A stretch of DNA of 64,000 bases, taken from contig JBJLGN010000030.1 in assembly GCA_045564835.1 (NCBI GenBank), positions 37,545 to 101,544 of the forward strand, in the 5' to 3' direction. Source of the DNA: Dehalococcoidia bacterium. Lineage in GTDB: Bacteria > Chloroflexota > Dehalococcoidia > Lucifugimonadales > GCA-002694895. The notes beneath the pieces were generated by a model. It was not told where the DNA came from and made no database searches. It was given only the letters and a program-made list of their open reading frames with translations. Positions 54,985 through 63,402 of the stretch are shown in pieces. Both the position numbers and the translations under genes were made by a program. Numbering within the stretch: position 1 is the stretch's first letter; every line of letters starts with the position of its first letter.

Positions 54985-56460
54985 ATGAATAAAAAATACT
55001 TGTTAAAAAATGCTACGATATATGATGGTGCGGGGTCAAATCCATTTAATGGGAATGTTTTAATAGAAGATGGGAAAATAATAGAAGTTGGCCAAATTGA
55101 TAACGTAGAAGCAGAAATAATTGATATAAAAGGAAAGGCACTGGCACCAGGATTCATTGATATGCATTCTCATGATGATATTGCTATGTTTGTTTATCCT
55201 GATATGGATTTTAAATTAATGCAAGGTGTGACCACTAATGTAAATGGTAATTGTGGTTCAGGAGTTATTCCTTACTCTAATGCAGATATTATTAAATGGT
55301 ATCCTAATTTACCTGAAATCCCTAAATGGGATTCGTATGGAGAGTATTCTGAATTAGTTAACAAATCCCAAACTAGTATTCATTCAGCTTTTTTAGTAGG
55401 TCATGGCCCAATAAGAAAGGCTACAGTAGGTAATGAAGAAAGAATGCCTACTGAAAAAGAATTTGATTTAATGAAGGGATGGATAAAAGAAGGTATGGAA
55501 GAGGGAGCTGTGGGCTTGTCTACTGGATTAATTTATGAACCAGGTAGATATTCTAATACAGATGAAATTATAGAATTAAGTAAAATCATTTCACCCTATA
55601 ATGGTGTGTATTTTAGTCATATGAGAAATGAAGCAGGACACCTTATAGAATCTGTAGAAGAGACAATAAAAATTGGAGAAGAAGCTGAGTGCTCAATAGA
55701 AATTTCTCACCATAAAGTATCCGGAGAAGAAAATTGGGGAAAATCTGTTAAATCACTGGAAACAATAGAAGAAGCTAGAAATAGAGGATTAAATGTTCAC
55801 TCAGATCAGTATCCTTACAATGCAGGGAGCACTTCTTTATTTGCAATTGTACAAAATAATGCATTCACAACAGGTGATGGAGGTATGGGCTCGGCAACCG
55901 GAGATAAAGTTATGATTTCTAGTTCTAGTAAAGATCCATCCTTAGAAGGTAAAACTATAGGCGATATTTGTGATGAATATGATCTGCCAGAGCAAGAAGC
56001 TGCTCAAAAGTTATTGAGTAGTGATCCTGATATATTTATTGTTATTGAAGGAATGGTAGAAGATGATATTGCTAGAATATTAGCTCACCCAACAACTATG
56101 ATAGGATCAGATGGAGTACCTTTACCAGGAAAACCACACCCAAGATTGTACGGTTGTTTTCCTAGAGTACTTGGTAAATATTCCAGAGAGGATGGCGTTA
56201 TAAGTATGCAAGATGCAATTTATAAAATGACTGGTCTTTCTGCCACTAAATCAAATTTAAATGATCGAGGTTTTATTAAAAAAGGATTAAATGCTGATAT
56301 AGTTATATTTGATGAAAGTACTATAATTGATAAAGCTACTTACGATAATCCAAGAGTTTATCCAGAAGGAATAATACATGTTTTTGTTGATGGTGATTTT
56401 GCTGTCAAAGATGGTAAACAAACCGATTTAAGAGCGGGCAAAGTGGCCAGAAGATCTTAA
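54985..56460 (+). CDS. N-acyl-D-amino acid deacylase (D-aminoacylase)
   Basis: PGFIDMHSH, GNCG, GLSTGLIY, SHMR, SHHK, YPY, IGSD, HPR. Confidence 0.92.
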   Translation: MNKKYLLKNATIYDGAGSNPFNGNVLIEDGKIIEVGQIDNVEAEIIDIKGKALAPGFIDMHSHDDIAMFVYPDMDFKLMQGVTTNVNGNCGSGVIPYSNADIIKWYPNLPEIPKWDSYGEYSELVNKSQTSIHSAFLVGHGPIRKATVGNEERMPTEKEFDLMKGWIKEGMEEGAVGLSTGLIYEPGRYSNTDEIIELSKIISPYNGVYFSHMRNEAGHLIESVEETIKIGEEAECSIEISHHKVSGEENWGKSVKSLETIEEARNRGLNVHSDQYPYNAGSTSLFAIVQNNAFTTGDGGMGSATGDKVMISSSSKDPSLEGKTIGDICDEYDLPEQEAAQKLLSSDPDIFIVIEGMVEDDIARILAHPTTMIGSDGVPLPGKPHPRLYGCFPRVLGKYSREDGVISMQDAIYKMTGLSATKSNLNDRGFIKKGLNADIVIFDESTIIDKATYDNPRVYPEGIIHVFVDGDFAVKDGKQTDLRAGKVARRS

Positions 56461-57026
56461 TTAGTTATAGTTATTTCTACTGCTTTTAGCTTTGTTCCAT
56501 CATTAGAGCCTGAAATAGATATATTTTTGTCTATTCCCAACTCGGATTTTTCAATGTTTACAAGCGATTTTATATTTGTTTCCTCGTCCATAGTTACTTG
56601 AATGTTCCCCATTTGAGTTTCAACATATAGCGTATTGTTTTGAATATCAGTAATGGTTCCAGTCATTGTTCGCAGACCCATATTTCCAAGTTGATTTTTT
56701 GATGAATTATTTATAGAAGGTTTATTTTCTGAAACAAAACCAGTTCTTATTTTATTTCTAAGATCTTCAGGAACTTCATCCATACTCATTTCCCCAGATT
56801 TTACTTTTTGGATAATTACTTTTTCTTCATCAGTTAATTCAGAACCAGAATCGGTTTTCTTTTTTTGACTACTACCATCTGGAGGGTAGATTTTCATGAA
56901 TTCTTTTCCCCCACTTATTGCAATATCAACTTTTTTATTTGCATTATTATTACCATTGTAGAATCCAATTGAATAAGTACCTCCAATTAGAATTATTATT
57001 GCAATTAAAAATAAAAATGATTTCAT
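56457..57026 (-). CDS. Membrane-anchored accessory protein of the MacAB-like operon
   Basis: N-terminal TM, C-terminal OB-like GTITDI..V segment; operon position. Confidence 0.6.
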   Translation of the reverse strand: MKSFLFLIAIIILIGGTYSIGFYNGNNNANKKVDIAISGGKEFMKIYPPDGSSQKKKTDSGSELTDEEKVIIQKVKSGEMSMDEVPEDLRNKIRTGFVSENKPSINNSSKNQLGNMGLRTMTGTITDIQNNTLYVETQMGNIQVTMDEETNIKSLVNIEKSELGIDKNISISGSNDGTKLKAVEITITN

Positions 57027-57038
57027 ACGTAAAGCTCC

Positions 57039-58274
57039 TTATTGATATCTTAATGCTTCTACAGGCTGTAATTTCGAAGCTCTGAGTGCAGGGAAAATGC
57101 CAAAAAACAATCCTGTTGCAGCAGATACTCCAAAAGCGAGCATAGCTATGTCTAGTGTAAATTCAGTTCTGAAAGGATCATCTCCTATCTCAATTTGGCC
57201 TATAAAATATAATGAAAGCCATCCCAAAAATATTCCTACCATTCCTCCTATAGTACTTAGTACAACAGATTCAGAAACAAATTGTAGCAGAATATCTTTT
57301 CTTTTTGCACCAAGGCTTTTCCTTATTCCAATTTCCCTTGTTCTTTCTGTTACTGATACCAACATAATATTCATTACCCCTATACCTCCAACTAGTAAAG
57401 AGATTCCTGCTATTGCTCCTAAAAATATAGTTATTCCTTGGGTAACTGTTTTAAATGTATCTAGTACTTCTTGTTGATTGATTATCTCAAAATCATCATC
57501 TTCGTCTGACGCAATTTTATGATTAAATCTTAATACACTTGTAGCCTCAAGAAGAGCTTTGTTAACTTCTTCTGCACTATTAGCTTCTACCACAATAGAA
57601 GCGAGTGCTACAGTTCCTGGGGTATTACTTGAATTAGATAATCTGTAGTGAGCTGTAGTAACTGGTATCAATGCTCTATCGTCAATACTTACACCCCCAA
57701 AGCCACCACCTTTTTCTTCTAGTACCCCAATAACTTGCATACTTCTTCCATTTATTCTAATGAATTGACCTACAGGATTACGATTGCCCAATAATTCATT
57801 AGCTGCATTAATACCTAGCACGGCTACTTCAGACATGTTTTCAACATGCAAATCAGAAATGAATGAGCCATGTTTCATATCTAAATTCCGTACAGTTTTA
57901 TAGTTTTGAGTAATCCCGTATACTTGAGTATATTTCCAGTTATTACTAAAGTTAATTTTACCCATTTGTACTAACTCAGGAGTAACAGATTTTATAGCAC
58001 TATTTTCACGTTTTGCAGCAAGTATTTCAGAATCTTTCAAGGATATTATAGATGAAGCTCCAGACTTCGAATCTCTTGAAGATGTTATATATATTAAGTT
58101 TGATCCAAGGGATTCTATCGTGTCAGTAACTGATTTTTCAAATCCTTTACCCATACCCATCAGAGATATAACTGATAGAATACCTATCACAATTCCAAGT
58201 AGAGTAAGTCCCGAGCGAAGCTTGTTTGTGCTTAGAGAATTTAGCGATGTTTTTAATATTGAAAAAATACTCAT
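57039..58274 (-). CDS. MacB/FtsX-family ABC permease
   Basis: RSGLTLLGIVIG, SLLVGGIGVMNIMLVSVTERTREIG, PVEALR. Confidence 0.93.
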   Translation of the reverse strand: MSIFSILKTSLNSLSTNKLRSGLTLLGIVIGILSVISLMGMGKGFEKSVTDTIESLGSNLIYITSSRDSKSGASSIISLKDSEILAAKRENSAIKSVTPELVQMGKINFSNNWKYTQVYGITQNYKTVRNLDMKHGSFISDLHVENMSEVAVLGINAANELLGNRNPVGQFIRINGRSMQVIGVLEEKGGGFGGVSIDDRALIPVTTAHYRLSNSSNTPGTVALASIVVEANSAEEVNKALLEATSVLRFNHKIASDEDDDFEIINQQEVLDTFKTVTQGITIFLGAIAGISLLVGGIGVMNIMLVSVTERTREIGIRKSLGAKRKDILLQFVSESVVLSTIGGMVGIFLGWLSLYFIGQIEIGDDPFRTEFTLDIAMLAFGVSAATGLFFGIFPALRASKLQPVEALRYQ

Positions 58275-58945
58275 TTATTCCTCTCATCATTAATTATTTC
58301 ACCATCTCTAAATGAAATAATTCTTTTCGTTAATTTTGCAACATCTGGTTCATGAGTAACTATTAAAACAGTTATTTTTGACTCTGTATTTAAATTTGTT
58401 AAGATTTCCATTATTTCACTTCCAGTTTTAGTATCTAATGCACCAGTTGGTTCATCTGCTAAAACTATTCTAGGATTTTTTACTAAAGCCCTAGCTATTG
58501 AAACTCTTTGTTGCTCACCTCCAGACATTTCAACCGGTTTGTGTTTCATTCTGTCTTTTAACCCAACTTTTTCAAGAGCGGATATAGCTTTTTCTTTAAT
58601 TTCTTTATTGCTTATATAAGATAACCCCATCATTACATTTTCGATTGCACTTATGCGTGGAAGTAAATTATAAGTCTGGAAAATAAAACCAACTTTTTCT
58701 CCTCTGATCTCAGCTAGTTCATTGTCATTTAATTTCCCCACTTCAATACCATCAAGCATGTATTCTCCTGTAGAAGGAATATCTAAACATCCAAGTATAT
58801 TCATCATTGTTGATTTACCAGATCCTGAAGGCCCCATTATAGAAGCAAATTCGCCTTGCTCTATGTCTAAGTTTACTGATTTAACAGCATTAACTTGAAC
58901 GCCGGATAATTGATATGTTTTTGAAACATCTAGTAATTTGATCAT
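58271..58945 (-). CDS. ABC transporter ATP-binding protein (MacB/LolD-like)
   Basis: GPSGSGKS, MSGGEQQR, LADEPTGALD. Confidence 0.95.
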   Translation of the reverse strand: MIKLLDVSKTYQLSGVQVNAVKSVNLDIEQGEFASIMGPSGSGKSTMMNILGCLDIPSTGEYMLDGIEVGKLNDNELAEIRGEKVGFIFQTYNLLPRISAIENVMMGLSYISNKEIKEKAISALEKVGLKDRMKHKPVEMSGGEQQRVSIARALVKNPRIVLADEPTGALDTKTGSEIMEILTNLNTESKITVLIVTHEPDVAKLTKRIISFRDGEIINDERNK

Positions 58946-58947
58946 TT

Positions 58948-61011
58948 TTACTTACGCTGTCTCGAATTGTCGGACCTTGGTTCAGATGATGGAGGACCTC
59001 CTCTAATATCAGTTGTTGGTATATCAGGAACCTCCATTACTATCATGTCTTCTGAATTCATTCCAGAAATTACTTCTACCCAATTAGAATCTGAATCTCC
59101 AATTTTTATACTTTTTTCTGTGACTTGGCCGTCATTAATTACTTTTACTGTTGGAGAATCGAAAGTCCCATATAAGCTTTGTATAGGAATTAAATTTATA
59201 CCATATTTAGCTTTTGTTATTACTTGGGCGGTAGCACTTAATCCATCTTTAAGAGTTGTATTATCAGGAATAATCACATCGATTTTTGCTGAAAATGTTG
59301 TCACCCCACCTGAAGAATTACTTGCAGACGCGATAGAATTCAAAGTCCCTTCTAGCTCTGTGTTTCTTAATGCATCGGTTTGTATTTTTGCTTCTAAGCC
59401 ACTTGATAAATACAAGATATCAACTTCATCAACATCACCAATAAATTCTAGTGTTTGTGGATTGGCTATAGTAATTATATTTTGTGCAGTGGTAATTGTA
59501 TCTCCTTCAGCTTTTAAGATTTGTGTTATAACACCATCATATGGAGCAAATATTTTTGCGCCAATTAAAATATTTTCAGCATTTCTCAAAAGTGCTTCTG
59601 CATTTTTAAGTTCAGATTCTCTTAATTTAACTATTTGTTGAAATTTTGATACATTTAGCTCTAGAATTGATATGTCTAATTCAGTTGGATTTTTTAGATC
59701 TTTAAGTTCATCTTCTAATTTTTTCAGAGATTCTTTATGTACTGATAGCTGATCACCAAGTTGTTGTTCTTTATCAGTTTGAGATCTTGAGAGAATCTCT
59801 TCATATGTTTGTTTGGCTGTTCTATACAAGGATAATTTGTTTGTATATGTACTCAGAGCTGTATCTATGGCTTTGTTTTTTTCAAGCGTTTTTTCACTTA
59901 GTGTTTTTATAGATTGCTGGTAATCATCCCAAGAATCTATAAGATTTTTTTCAATGCATGTTTTATTTATTGAAGACGTACCAATTGTTTGTGTTGGCAT
60001 TACAGATGTATTTTTACAATCTATCCAAATATCAGCTGAAGAGTCCTCTTTGCCTATACTTGAGGGGCTTAGATGGAGCCATCCATAGATAGTTAGTTCA
60101 TCAAGCTGAGTGTTTTTGTCGTCGACAGGCCTAAGATAAACATCTCTGCGAACAGTAGATTCGCTGAATATTGTATGTAAATTAGTATTCCATTTTTTAA
60201 GTATATCTTTATGGTCTATTAAATATTCTTCTTTATTTGATAGACCAAACCATTTATTTAATTCTTTAAAATATAATTCTTTTTGTGCTTCAATGCTTTC
60301 TTCGTGAGGCTTGATATTTGTATCCCACTGAGACTTAGTGATGTCTAGAGTTTTCTGCGCATTATTCTTAGTGAAGAGTGCTACATCATAGTTTGATTTT
60401 GCATTGTCTAAATCAACTTTTTTCCCTGATTTGAGATAAAAAGACAAGTCGAATTCTGATCTTGAAATAGTAATTTTAGTATCAGAAATAGCTTTTTCTT
60501 TATTTGCTATAAGTACTGTATCACCTTTAGAAGCTGTATCGAGCGTTTCTTTTGCTTCAACTAAATTTGATTCACTTACTTTAAGTGAATATTTTGCAGT
60601 CGCAACATCTGACTTAGCTTTGGCTACATTTTTTGCTAATTCTGTAACTTTTATGTCATCTAATTCTGCAAGAGTAGTCCCCGATGTAACAAGTTGATTT
60701 TCTTCTACGTAGATTTTAGCAATTTTCCCAACACTTAAAAATTTCATGTCGTCTTTGTCTGAAAATTTGATTTGACCAGTAATTGTCACATCTGATACCA
60801 AATCACCTTTTTGCATGGTTATTATTTGTTGCGATTCAGTGACAATCGTATTATCAGTACCTACATAGCTTTTGAAGAAATATACTGATAACAAGGTTCC
60901 AATTATTAAAGTGAGTGATATTGAAGTTAATTTACCAATTTTACTTAACTTTAAATTACTTAGGAGTTTTAATGGTTTTTTTAGTGTTCCCAAAATAGAC
61001 GATAGATTCAT
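58948..61011 (-). CDS. Periplasmic adaptor (MFP/HlyD) with long insert
   Basis: N-terminal TM, GKIAKIYV..G, coiled coils, IFAPYDG, VDEVD, EVISG. Confidence 0.85.
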   Translation of the reverse strand: MNLSSILGTLKKPLKLLSNLKLSKIGKLTSISLTLIIGTLLSVYFFKSYVGTDNTIVTESQQIITMQKGDLVSDVTITGQIKFSDKDDMKFLSVGKIAKIYVEENQLVTSGTTLAELDDIKVTELAKNVAKAKSDVATAKYSLKVSESNLVEAKETLDTASKGDTVLIANKEKAISDTKITISRSEFDLSFYLKSGKKVDLDNAKSNYDVALFTKNNAQKTLDITKSQWDTNIKPHEESIEAQKELYFKELNKWFGLSNKEEYLIDHKDILKKWNTNLHTIFSESTVRRDVYLRPVDDKNTQLDELTIYGWLHLSPSSIGKEDSSADIWIDCKNTSVMPTQTIGTSSINKTCIEKNLIDSWDDYQQSIKTLSEKTLEKNKAIDTALSTYTNKLSLYRTAKQTYEEILSRSQTDKEQQLGDQLSVHKESLKKLEDELKDLKNPTELDISILELNVSKFQQIVKLRESELKNAEALLRNAENILIGAKIFAPYDGVITQILKAEGDTITTAQNIITIANPQTLEFIGDVDEVDILYLSSGLEAKIQTDALRNTELEGTLNSIASASNSSGGVTTFSAKIDVIIPDNTTLKDGLSATAQVITKAKYGINLIPIQSLYGTFDSPTVKVINDGQVTEKSIKIGDSDSNWVEVISGMNSEDMIVMEVPDIPTTDIRGGPPSSEPRSDNSRQRK

Positions 61012-61331: not shown

Positions 61332-61568
61332 ATGAATGAAATTCCTAAGCTTGATTTACACAGAATAAAACATGAGGAAGCAGAAATTCTTGTTGATAGA
61401 TTTATTAATGAGAATTGGGGTAAAAATATTGAAACACAAATAATCACAGGAAATTCAAAAAAAATGAAAGATATTGTTATATCAAAGTTAAACTTTTACA
61501 AATTAGAATTTTCTGTGGGTGATAGATGGAATCCTACTAACTCAGGATATATTAGTGTAATTATTTGA
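61332..61568 (+). CDS. Stand-alone Smr domain protein
   Basis: LDLH, IITG, N.G. Confidence 0.8.
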   Translation: MNEIPKLDLHRIKHEEAEILVDRFINENWGKNIETQIITGNSKKMKDIVISKLNFYKLEFSVGDRWNPTNSGYISVII

Positions 61569-62229
61569 TGTGGGTACTTAAAAATTCTATATTTCTTTTG
61601 TATGACAATTCAGCCGCTTCCTTATTGTATATCTCAGATCTTTCATCATTAAAAAATGCATGTTCTGTACCAGGATAAATATGAAATTTGAAGTTGGCTT
61701 TTGTTTTTATTAACTCTAATTCAATACTATTTAGAGCTTCAGTTGCCTTGTCGTGCTCAGCGTAATGGCCTAAGATAGGGCAATTAATTTTACTCCAATC
61801 AGGTTTGATATTAACTAATACCCCGTAATAGGGTATAGCAGCATCAATTATATTTTGAGTTGCCATATAAAGAGCCAAACCACCACCCATGCAATAACCT
61901 ATACATGCAACTTTATTATTTGAAACAAAGTTTTCTTCTTTGATATATTTTATTGCGTTCGATATTTTGTACGAAGCTTCTTTAGCTTTAAGTTCTAACA
62001 TTAATTTTTGTGCTTCGTTAGGTTCTGTTGTTTTTTGACCGTCATATAAATCAGGCGCGAGTACTACATAGCCTTCTTTTGCATATCTGTCAGCAACATG
62101 TTTGATGTGATCAACTAATCCCCACCATTCTTGTAAAATTACCAATCCTGGGCCTGTTTTATTTTGAGGGAGTGACAAATATCCTTGATAATTATTCTCT
62201 GGGCCAAATGTTACTGTTTTTCCATTCAT
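61561..62229 (-). CDS. Dienelactone hydrolase family
   Basis: QEWWGL, APDLY, GYCMGG, YPGTEHAF. Confidence 0.92.
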   Translation of the reverse strand: MNGKTVTFGPENNYQGYLSLPQNKTGPGLVILQEWWGLVDHIKHVADRYAKEGYVVLAPDLYDGQKTTEPNEAQKLMLELKAKEASYKISNAIKYIKEENFVSNNKVACIGYCMGGGLALYMATQNIIDAAIPYYGVLVNIKPDWSKINCPILGHYAEHDKATEALNSIELELIKTKANFKFHIYPGTEHAFFNDERSEIYNKEAAELSYKRNIEFLSTHIK

Positions 62230-62242
62230 TATGAATCCTATC

Positions 62243-62815
62243 CTATTCTTTTACTAATATAACTTTTGTGTTTGCTATCATATCGTGAATACATCTTCTG
62301 TCTTCTCTAAATATAAATAATTTGTCGATAGTTACAATAATAATTCCAACTATAGGAAAAATGCCAATAATTCCTATTATCCATTCTCTTAAAACAACAT
62401 TTGTTAGGAATCCTCCTGAATTTCCATTTTTATCTATTATCATAATATTCATGAATTTTTTTCCCAAAGTTTGAGATATGGTTGCTAATAGATAGTATTG
62501 GTATACAGCAAAGGATATTCCTCCAATAATTGCTCCAATTAGAGCTTCTCCTGCCCCTGAAATTATAGCTATAACAGTAGCAGGGATAACAATTGCAACG
62601 ACACCTAAAAACCCATCTATTATTCTTGCTATTAGTCTTTTTGATCTACTTGCAAGTATTGGATTGTTATTATCACTAGGATCGTCTGTTTTAGTTAAAC
62701 TAGGATTAGGATCAAATTCATTTGATTTGATTAATTCTATTCCACAATGATTACAAAATTTATCAATATTATTGATAGCTTTTCCGCACTCTTTACAAAA
62801 TGATGATTCTTGCAT
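62243..62815 (-). CDS. Zinc-ribbon plus RDD family membrane protein
   Basis: CKECG..FCNHCG; RLIARIID, TLGK, HDMIANT. Confidence 0.88.
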   Translation of the reverse strand: MQESSFCKECGKAINNIDKFCNHCGIELIKSNEFDPNPSLTKTDDPSDNNNPILASRSKRLIARIIDGFLGVVAIVIPATVIAIISGAGEALIGAIIGGISFAVYQYYLLATISQTLGKKFMNIMIIDKNGNSGGFLTNVVLREWIIGIIGIFPIVGIIIVTIDKLFIFREDRRCIHDMIANTKVILVKE

Positions 62816-62829
62816 TTTATTCTATAAAT

Positions 62830-63402
62830 CTAGTTGGTAATTTTTTTTAATAATTCCAAAGTTTTTGCTAATAAATAATCAGTAGGAGGTCTATCAGATG
62901 GAGTAGAACCTATATGAGACCATAATATTTCCTTATTTTTTCCAACAATAAAAGCTGCAGGTGCTGCCACGCCATCACCTAATACATTAAATACCTTCCA
63001 TTCCTGTGAAATTGTGTATGTATTATCTGAAATCATACTAAAATTTGCATTAACATCAGTTCTCATTGCATCTGTATTTTCTTGGTCGTCAGTACTAACT
63101 GTAATGACATCAATACCAAATCTTTTAAATAATTCATGATTTTGTGACAACTCACCTAGTTGTGCTCTGCAAATACCTCAGAAATATCCTCTGTAGAAAA
63201 CAATTATTACAGATTGATAATTTGACAATGATTTATCAATGGCAGTATCTAAACTAGGATCTAGTGAAATATTTTCAGTAGAAGTTATTGTTTCTGTTGG
63301 CTTTGAATCTACTTCTGAAGAACAGCTTAAAATAGTTAATATACTAACTAAGGTAAAAATATAAATGGGCAATTTGGAAAATTTTGTAAAACTTTTCATC
63401 AT
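62830..63402 (-). CDS. Peroxiredoxin-like (AhpC/TSA) lipoprotein selenoprotein, Sec at codon 75
   Basis: In-frame join of two ORFs: VFYRGYF-TGA-GICRAQLGEL; redoxin motifs VSTD, ISD, PAAFIV; lipobox ILSC. Confidence 0.88.
63147..63163 (-). promoter_or_regulatory. Bacterial SECIS-like hairpin
   Basis: ACAACU-AGGUG-AGUUGU after a 14-nt spacer following the UGA (63178-63180); G at loop position 2. Confidence 0.65.

Follow-up and report, generated by a model that had tools for sequence, protein, structure and literature searches.

Judging from the accessible parts of the sources, both the Prx-like UxxC family and exported selenolipoproteins are already known. The former comprises Prx-like thiol:disulfide oxidoreductase selenoproteins with a PF00578 domain and a UxxC or UxxU motif, represented by WP_010940744.1 in Table 1 of PMC13188914, and 22 Prx-like UxxC sequences were reported in the Sargasso Sea set (PMC1088965). 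The latter include SaoX and SaoC (10.1101/2022.07.06.499078). A redoxin group with Cys instead of Sec, PRX_like2 of the CDD (cd02970), is described as having a CxxC motif with the second Cys at the peroxidatic position and the other catalytic residues absent (PMC3514251). Furthermore, TlpA is reported to reduce CoxB and Sco before metalation (PMC6669012). A selenoprotein call as such is ordinary in this class, since Dehalococcoidia already count among the bacteria listed as richest in selenoproteins (PMC13326102).

The window analysed here is a stretch of 64,000 nucleotides from a 1.15-Mb, 76%-complete assembly, and the sequencing runs containing it are marine or aquatic. On the minus strand, positions 63402-62830 form one frame of 190 codons plus a stop, with a single internal TGA. 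The preliminary description had reported two ORFs in one frame (63402-63178 and 63150-62830) and the peptide VIIVFYRGYF-TGA-GICRAQLGELSQN around codon 75 (motif FYRGYF-U-GIC). Both were recovered, the TGA is the sole internal stop between the two ORFs, and the strand, left unstated there, is minus. The features are as follows.

62830-63402, minus strand: coding sequence of 190 aa with the TGA read as Sec, a predicted peroxiredoxin-fold UxxC selenolipoprotein.
63322-63402, minus strand: predicted lipoprotein signal peptide (residues 1-26) and lipid-anchor Cys27 (63324-63322), from the sequence and the lipobox pattern.
63265-63321, minus strand: Ser/Thr-rich linker spanning residues 28-46, with predicted disorder (residues 31-46 have a pLDDT under 50).
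63178-63180, minus strand: in-frame TGA, codon 75, predicted selenocysteine at position 1 of UxxC, aligned with the Thr of the peroxiredoxin PxxxTxxC motif.
63169-63171, minus strand: Cys78, the second residue of UxxC, invariant in 41 of 41 aligned sequences.
63147-63163, minus strand: SECIS-like hairpin ACAACT-AGGUG-AGUUGU with a perfect 6-bp stem, from geometry and comparative conservation.
62959-62961, minus strand: Pro148, aligned at the catalytic Arg position and at least 90% conserved (the thioredoxin-type cis-Pro site by position, not geometry).

Besides Sec75, Cys27 and Cys78 are the only Cys residues of the predicted protein. The PF00578 (AhpC-TSA) profile scored 72.5 bits with read-through versus 43.3 bits for the C-terminal half alone (cut-off 26), and the protein combines this domain with a UxxC (UGIC), the combination by which Prx-like UxxC selenoproteins are recognised. 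As far as these are covered by the accessible descriptions, it shares with them PF00578, a thioredoxin-like UxxC as opposed to TxxU, an in-frame UGA with a G-loop hairpin, and a marine origin. It is set apart from them, by description and not by the sequence of WP_010940744.1, by its lipoprotein signal and linker, its N-terminal helix and the copper-module context of its relatives. The words 'lipoprotein' and 'signal peptide' are absent from the accessible text of PMC13188914, and 'lipoprotein' from that of PMC9312934. The exported form and the copper-module link of the UxxC family were not found in the open-access literature; BSepDB may already list the gene or its relatives. With SaoX and SaoC, as far as their accessible account goes, the protein shares Sec in a protein with a lipoprotein signal, whereas their folds (ABC substrate-binding, CC-COOH) and pathway are unrelated. 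Like PRX_like2 as described in the accessible part of PMC3514251, it has the second motif Cys at the peroxidatic position and lacks the catalytic set, but unlike that group, by the same description, it has Sec at the first position and is predicted to be exported.

The TGA letters were unchanged in contigs of three runs from different studies, one a DNA run and two RNA-library runs (4 of the 24 listed runs were compared, the fourth of which had no coverage of the codon). A sequencing error, for which TGC or TGT had been named as the sign, found no support in the three runs that cover the codon, as none has another letter. RNA-library contigs span the gene in two studies, which bears on the letters and not on transcription. 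Sequencing or assembly error was ruled out by these independent runs together with the TGA in 71 of 73 copies. An alternative code with TGA as Trp or Gly was also ruled out: TGA terminates 87 of the 543 long ORFs, and the tRNA-Trp is CCA, which reads only UGG. Standard gene callers had been expected to split the gene, and databases indeed carry either C-terminal halves of 106-114 aa or full-length proteins with Trp at the TGA codon, the latter being gene-caller read-throughs and not true Trp. The present reading repairs this annotation, in which the fragment lacks active site and anchor, or Trp stands for Sec. A promoter and terminator scan of the gene remained at chance level.

The same frame with a single TGA occurs in six of the seven same-genus genomes, at 65-96% identity; the match in G003 also includes a TAA located ahead of its start. 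Among the 73 copies parsed, which come from genomes and metagenomes, include duplicates and comprise 45 distinct downstream sequences (locus L071 did not parse), the Sec codon is TGA in 71 and TAA in two. Throughout the order, at GC contents of 28% to 70%, the TGA is retained, and the halves on either side of it are intact and share a frame. Relatives occur in 22 named genome records, all Dehalococcoidia or Chloroflexota, one of which is labelled SAR202. Distant homologues (95 parsable among the 150 best representatives) have CxxC in 85 cases, SxxC in five, WxxC in four and another motif in one, which bears out the proposed position of the UGA at the first Cys of the redoxin motif. In two metagenome contigs (L118:1385-1387 and L119), TAA replaces TGA while the module is otherwise intact and the hairpin is kept; these represent either a recent pseudogene or an unexplained read-through. 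At L038:1306-2721 (+) in G038, a lipoprotein contains the domain twice in tandem, and each copy has a TGA and a hairpin of its own; the lipoprotein is therefore a predicted two-Sec exported protein.

The preliminary description had pointed to a search for the Sec machinery. In the genome we found selA (502 bits), selB (269 bits) and selC, a tRNA-Sec(UCA), but no selD in this 76%-complete assembly; selD is present in 5 of 7 same-genus genomes and in 35 of the 41 genomes searched. A scan for in-frame TGA codons outside other genes revealed five more convincing selenoprotein candidates in this genome. On read-through they belong to rhodanese, AhpD-like, PrdB-like, deiodinase-like and thioredoxin-like families (most below curated cut-offs), and in each a G-loop hairpin follows the TGA at a distance of 16-18 nt. 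L129, L130, L131 and L132 (G000 contigs C1, C3, C15 and C21) hold a rhodanese UxxG, an AhpD-like CxxU, a PrdB-like UxxC and a deiodinase-like UxxC. L133:760-1338 (-), on G000 contig C21, encodes a second predicted exported selenoprotein, with a lipobox-like IIAC, a thioredoxin-like UGHC and a 7-bp hairpin at +16.

The bSECIS model, as given in the accessible part of PMC13188914, has a loop of 3-9 nt, a stem of 4-16 bp, a G in the first two loop positions, a spacing of 16-37 nt and an energy of -7.5 kcal/mol or lower. The hairpin of this gene begins after a 14-nt spacer from the TGA, its loop starts 20 nt after the UGA, and it has the model's geometry (a 5-nt loop with G at position 2, a stem of 6 bp and a spacing of 20 nt). 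Its folding energy was no better than chance (z +0.4 to +2.0). It missed the threshold in windows of 45 and 60 nt because it is absent from their minimum-energy fold (-4.9 kcal/mol). Window energies ranged from -4.9 to -6.4 kcal/mol for 42-62 nt and reached -8.1 kcal/mol for 82 nt, and the hairpin is the weakest among the six selenoprotein-candidate hairpins of the genome. A lower stem near the UGA was not recovered by the consensus fold. Folding energy, being not significant, was dropped as proof of a SECIS.

The case for the hairpin is comparative. Its conserved core consists of 5 bp at +16 to +30 with a G at loop position 2. This core pairs in 99.5% of the cells of 43 sequences, versus 6-44% when slid, and the loop G is invariant (45/45) while the encoded amino acid varies among Gly, Val and Asp. 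The scans that collected homologous copies were seeded with the QLGE peptide, and therefore only synonymous positions count as evidence for the hairpin. Among 23 distinct same-genus genes, synonymous differences amounted to 0.079 in codons +1 to +13 versus 0.347 elsewhere (permutation p 2e-5, the genes being kin and not independent); codons -2 to +2 and +11 to +14 are likewise nearly invariant within the genus. The rare codons GAG and TTG are used 23 out of 23 times at the hairpin, versus a genome use of 13% and 17%, and none of the nine other QLxEL sites in the genome allows the stem (expected 12%). In GC-rich loci, 9 of 14 control QLxEL sites also permit the stem; since such sites often allow it, the case weighs on the low-GC genus. 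Covariation was dropped as independent proof, because the only pair that changes on both sides (A-U to G-C) tracks GC content and these GC-rich controls allow the stem. Hence, the 6-bp hairpin with AGGUG loop and 14-nt spacer of the preliminary description is present and, to judge from these comparisons, under clear synonymous-site selection, yet it is thermodynamically weak, with an energy at chance level.

It is extremely improbable that the TGA is an error or a true stop that leaves a pseudogene or two short proteins. The absence of selD from this assembly, the energetic weakness of the hairpin and the TAA in one lineage (L118, L119) would fit such a stop, but the order-wide TGA lies at a catalytic Cys column between intact halves, the hairpin is under selection, and independent runs confirm the letters. 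We conclude that the gene almost certainly encodes a selenocysteine enzyme. SelB is predicted, with very high confidence, to bind the hairpin and to insert Sec at codon 75.

The structure model (pLDDT 90.4) has a peroxiredoxin fold. The nearest solved folds were all peroxiredoxins (Foldseek TM about 0.7; VIA Z 19.2 to a Prx6, with an rmsd of 2.0 over 140 residues), and fold comparison gave Z 17-19 for peroxiredoxins versus 12-14 for ResA and DsbE. With the classical peroxiredoxins (AhpC, BCP/PrxQ, AhpE, Prx6) the protein shares this fold and the alignment of Cys78 with their peroxidatic Cys. Unlike them, however, it has Arg71 in place of the motif Pro and Sec75 in place of the Thr, its Pro148 falls on the catalytic Arg, it reads RGYF-U-GIC where the PxxxT/SxxC motif would stand, and it belongs to a family in which only 1 of 150 relatives has the catalytic Arg by pattern. 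Because the catalytic Pro, Thr and Arg are replaced, it has a peroxiredoxin fold but is not a true peroxiredoxin; of the peroxiredoxin-like identity proposed earlier, only the fold was retained. The active site is, by alignment, a predicted thioredoxin-type arrangement of UxxC plus Pro. A separate, true BCP-type gene is present in the genome.

None of the NCBIfam models reached its cut-off. Peroxiredoxin models were all far under, the selenoredoxins SelL_rel_redox (NF040769), redoxin_TUGYCR (NF053656) and PrxU (NF040737) scored 58.7/120, 16.9/100 and 30.2/270, and the ResA model NF002854 gave 23.7 bits versus a cut-off of 170. At 63217-63264 of the window, a helix (residues 50-61) replaces the fold's N-terminal beta-hairpin in this genus, whereas other lineages keep the usual segment.

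This fold raises the alternative of a surface peroxidase, in which the Sec selenolate would reduce H2O2 or lipid hydroperoxides and Cys78 would resolve, guarding the envelope, also against copper-driven oxidation. Sec needs less activation than Cys, the residues Arg71 and Arg171, invariant in the alignment, could replace the lost Arg, and a general antioxidant has no need of one fixed operon. We nevertheless consider a peroxidase unlikely: the closest solved folds are all peroxiredoxins, but the canonical Pro, Thr and Arg are all replaced, and a peroxidase likewise needs a reductant, of which none was identified. Moreover, Sec occupies the nucleophile position of thioredoxins and not the peroxidatic position of the TxxU peroxiredoxin selenoproteins, as far as these are described in the accessible part of PMC1088965.

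The N-terminus consists of three Lys, a hydrophobic stretch and the ILS-C27 lipobox already pointed out in the preliminary description. By our own pattern, a hydrophobic stretch with a lipobox-like Cys is conserved in 63 of the 73 copies (the 10 misses include a second tandem domain), and a lipobox occurs in 34 of the 85 CxxC distant homologues. In GC-rich relatives the linker is Pro/Thr-rich and reaches up to about 250 aa. Neither lgt nor lspA was found in this 76%-complete assembly; of the seven same-genus genomes, five have lgt and all have lspA, which rules out a lineage-wide loss. Lgt and LspA would very probably anchor the predicted protein through Cys27 on the outer face of the membrane. 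The earlier proposal of a 190-aa membrane-tethered selenoprotein is thus supported by the Sec machinery, the conserved TGA, the selection on the hairpin and the conserved lipobox.

Within this genus, the gene lies after an ABC-2 transporter gene and ahead of genes for an RDD protein and a dienelactone hydrolase, a context that is little informative. The neighbours in the window at 56457-61011 (-) and 61332-62815 are ordinary: an HlyD-type membrane-fusion protein accompanied by an ABC ATPase and a permease, a Smr-like ORF of 78 aa, an RDD/zinc-ribbon protein and a dienelactone hydrolase. In other genera the context differs, and new here is the placement of the redoxin inside a putative copper module, on the same strand, in 11 of 26 genomes. 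Of the remainder, 13 have no adjacent module gene and two are uninformative, their contigs being too short. The module contains a small His-rich protein, a CopC-CopD-cytochrome c fusion, a cupredoxin-like lipoprotein, a membrane protein of 500 aa, and one or two uncharacterised exported membrane proteins that gave no Pfam hit. The 11 module-linked redoxins occupy four unjoined branches of an unresolved tree, with different gene orders; depending on the lineage, the CopCD fusion is preceded or followed by the redoxin. Because the backbone of the tree is unresolved and the genus sits on a long branch, loss from the module here and repeated recruitment elsewhere are both possible.

The genome itself has three module genes on contig C26, without the redoxin, behind trpB and a Lit-like gene; only 47 bp are left where L073, L077 and L080, which have the Lit gene at the same place, have the redoxin. 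CopD was found in none of the eight genomes of the genus. Furthermore, no thioredoxin-fold gene lies near 17 of 18 further module loci, and the redoxin is therefore optional to the module. G019 is without this redoxin; there, a selenolipoprotein with a DsbA fold and a UxxC motif (L232:7692-8402, +) follows the membrane protein of the module, about 2 kb upstream of the oxidase operon.

The module's 500-aa membrane protein occurs in 27 of the 41 genomes, where it is auto-named 'fenitrothion hydrolase family', and it almost always adjoins the cupredoxin-like lipoprotein or the CopCD fusion. Its profile matched seven of the PF12801 proteins taken from 30 loci, with E values of 1e-18 to 1e-77, and hhalign gave 99.9-100%, versus 52% or less for controls. 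By these profile matches, the 'fenitrothion hydrolase family' is assigned to the NapH/CcoG superfamily, as a degenerate, full-length NapH/CcoG-type (PF12801) homologue in which both CxxxCP motifs are lost. CcoG is a cupric reductase according to the accessible part of PMC7558416. The confident model of the membrane protein had no Foldseek match among solved folds at E 0.001 (best Z 6.1), and the sequence search gave none. In this genome the protein is encoded as follows.

L161:3859-5292, G000 contig C26, minus strand: membrane protein with invariant His26, His371, His427 and His435.

A central Cys cluster is kept in 59 of 106 homologues and deleted in this genus, which rules out the membrane protein as an Fe-S electron conduit here.

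The predicted mechanism starts from the UxxC pair. By analogy with thioredoxin-type CxxC enzymes, Sec75 would probably be the attacking nucleophile, and Cys78 would resolve to a selenenylsulfide. The protein resembles TlpA, ResA and CcmG in being, by prediction, a thioredoxin-fold dithiol that faces outward and is tethered to the membrane, and in having a Pro at the cis-Pro site and plausible clients in the genome; it differs from them in having FYRGxF-U-xxC instead of WCxxC, in its lower fold scores against them (Z 12-14) and in that no CcdA/DsbD partner was found. The genome encodes a caa3-type oxidase with Sco and CtaG, and two PF01578 cytochrome c assembly genes. Following the TlpA/ResA analogy, the clients might be copper or cytochrome maturation sites, for example Sco, the CuA cysteines in subunit II of the oxidase, or CxxCH heme motifs, a suggestion we make with some hesitation. 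The cupredoxin-like module protein has no Cys beyond its lipobox and is therefore not a thiol client. Because relatives often sit in the putative copper module, we tentatively read the protein as an outward-facing thiol reductase of the thioredoxin type. Its role would be to maintain surface-protein cysteines in the reduced state, most likely the ones required for copper and heme loading. This reading offers a functional lead for an uncharacterised selenoprotein family, namely surface thiol upkeep linked to copper genes. The fold scores, which favour peroxiredoxins over ResA/DsbE, speak against a reductase, and the position of the gene outside the copper module in this genome and genus speaks against copper clients.

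The redoxin inside the copper module of 11 genomes would also suit a Sco-like Cu(I) carrier, in which Sec75 and Cys78 would bind Cu(I) and hand it on among the cupredoxin-like lipoprotein, the membrane protein and the CopC-CopD fusion. Sco proteins are themselves membrane-anchored thioredoxin folds, according to the accessible part of PMC6669012. A carrier is nonetheless very unlikely, as the UxxC spacing is not Sco's CxxxC, the alignment has no conserved His, and a separate Sco is encoded in the oxidase operon.

A thiol reductase would require a donor, and CcdA/DsbD over cut-off was found in none of the eight genomes of the genus (65-89% complete), nor in several carriers that are 94-100% complete; the PF13386 matches inspected are without the CcdA cysteines. 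Across 41 genomes, DsbB occurs in one, VKOR in three and CcdA/DsbD over cut-off in eight, none of which belongs to this genus. CcdA, DsbB and VKOR were thus not found as partners, although a divergent donor may exist. As there is no CcdA/DsbD over cut-off, a reductase would lack its usual donor. Moreover, the need for a Sec reductase is weakened by an ordinary Cys TlpA-like protein with WCPPC in the genome. In G000-G007, G009, G011, G027, G028 and G029 no CcdA/DsbD, DsbB or VKOR was detected despite exported thioredoxin-fold proteins, and cytochrome c assembly genes are present in the five checked. This exposes a gap: these aerobes have no recognisable trans-membrane disulfide conduit, although they possess cytochrome c assembly genes as well as exported proteins with UxxC and CxxC.

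No membrane partner would be needed if the protein were a DsbA/DsbC-like disulfide-forming or isomerising catalyst, with its selenol re-oxidised directly by O2 or Cu(II). The scarcity of DsbB, VKOR and CcdA/DsbD and the lack of hits in the genus are consistent with such a catalyst, as is the DsbA-fold Sec lipoprotein in the module of G019. It is still quite unlikely: the fold does not resemble DsbA, a UxxC site should be more reducing than a CxxC one, and the TlpA-like protein and cytochrome c assembly genes imply some unrecognised reducing route.

Taking the thiol-reductase reading one step further, SAR202-type Dehalococcoidia might run an undescribed surface copper-acquisition module with a lipid-anchored Sec oxidoreductase (Prx-fold; DsbA-fold in one lineage), the CopC-CopD-cytochrome c fusion, the cupredoxin-like lipoprotein and the NapH/CcoG-type protein. 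The Sec enzyme would be recycled without CcdA/DsbD, DsbB or VKOR, and selenium use would be tied to the copper of the terminal oxidase. We regard this scenario as speculative and, on present evidence, rather doubtful. Elsewhere in the order, L044, L045, L047 and L050-L054 are signal-less Prx-like TGA paralogues with UxxC, UxxS or TxxU.
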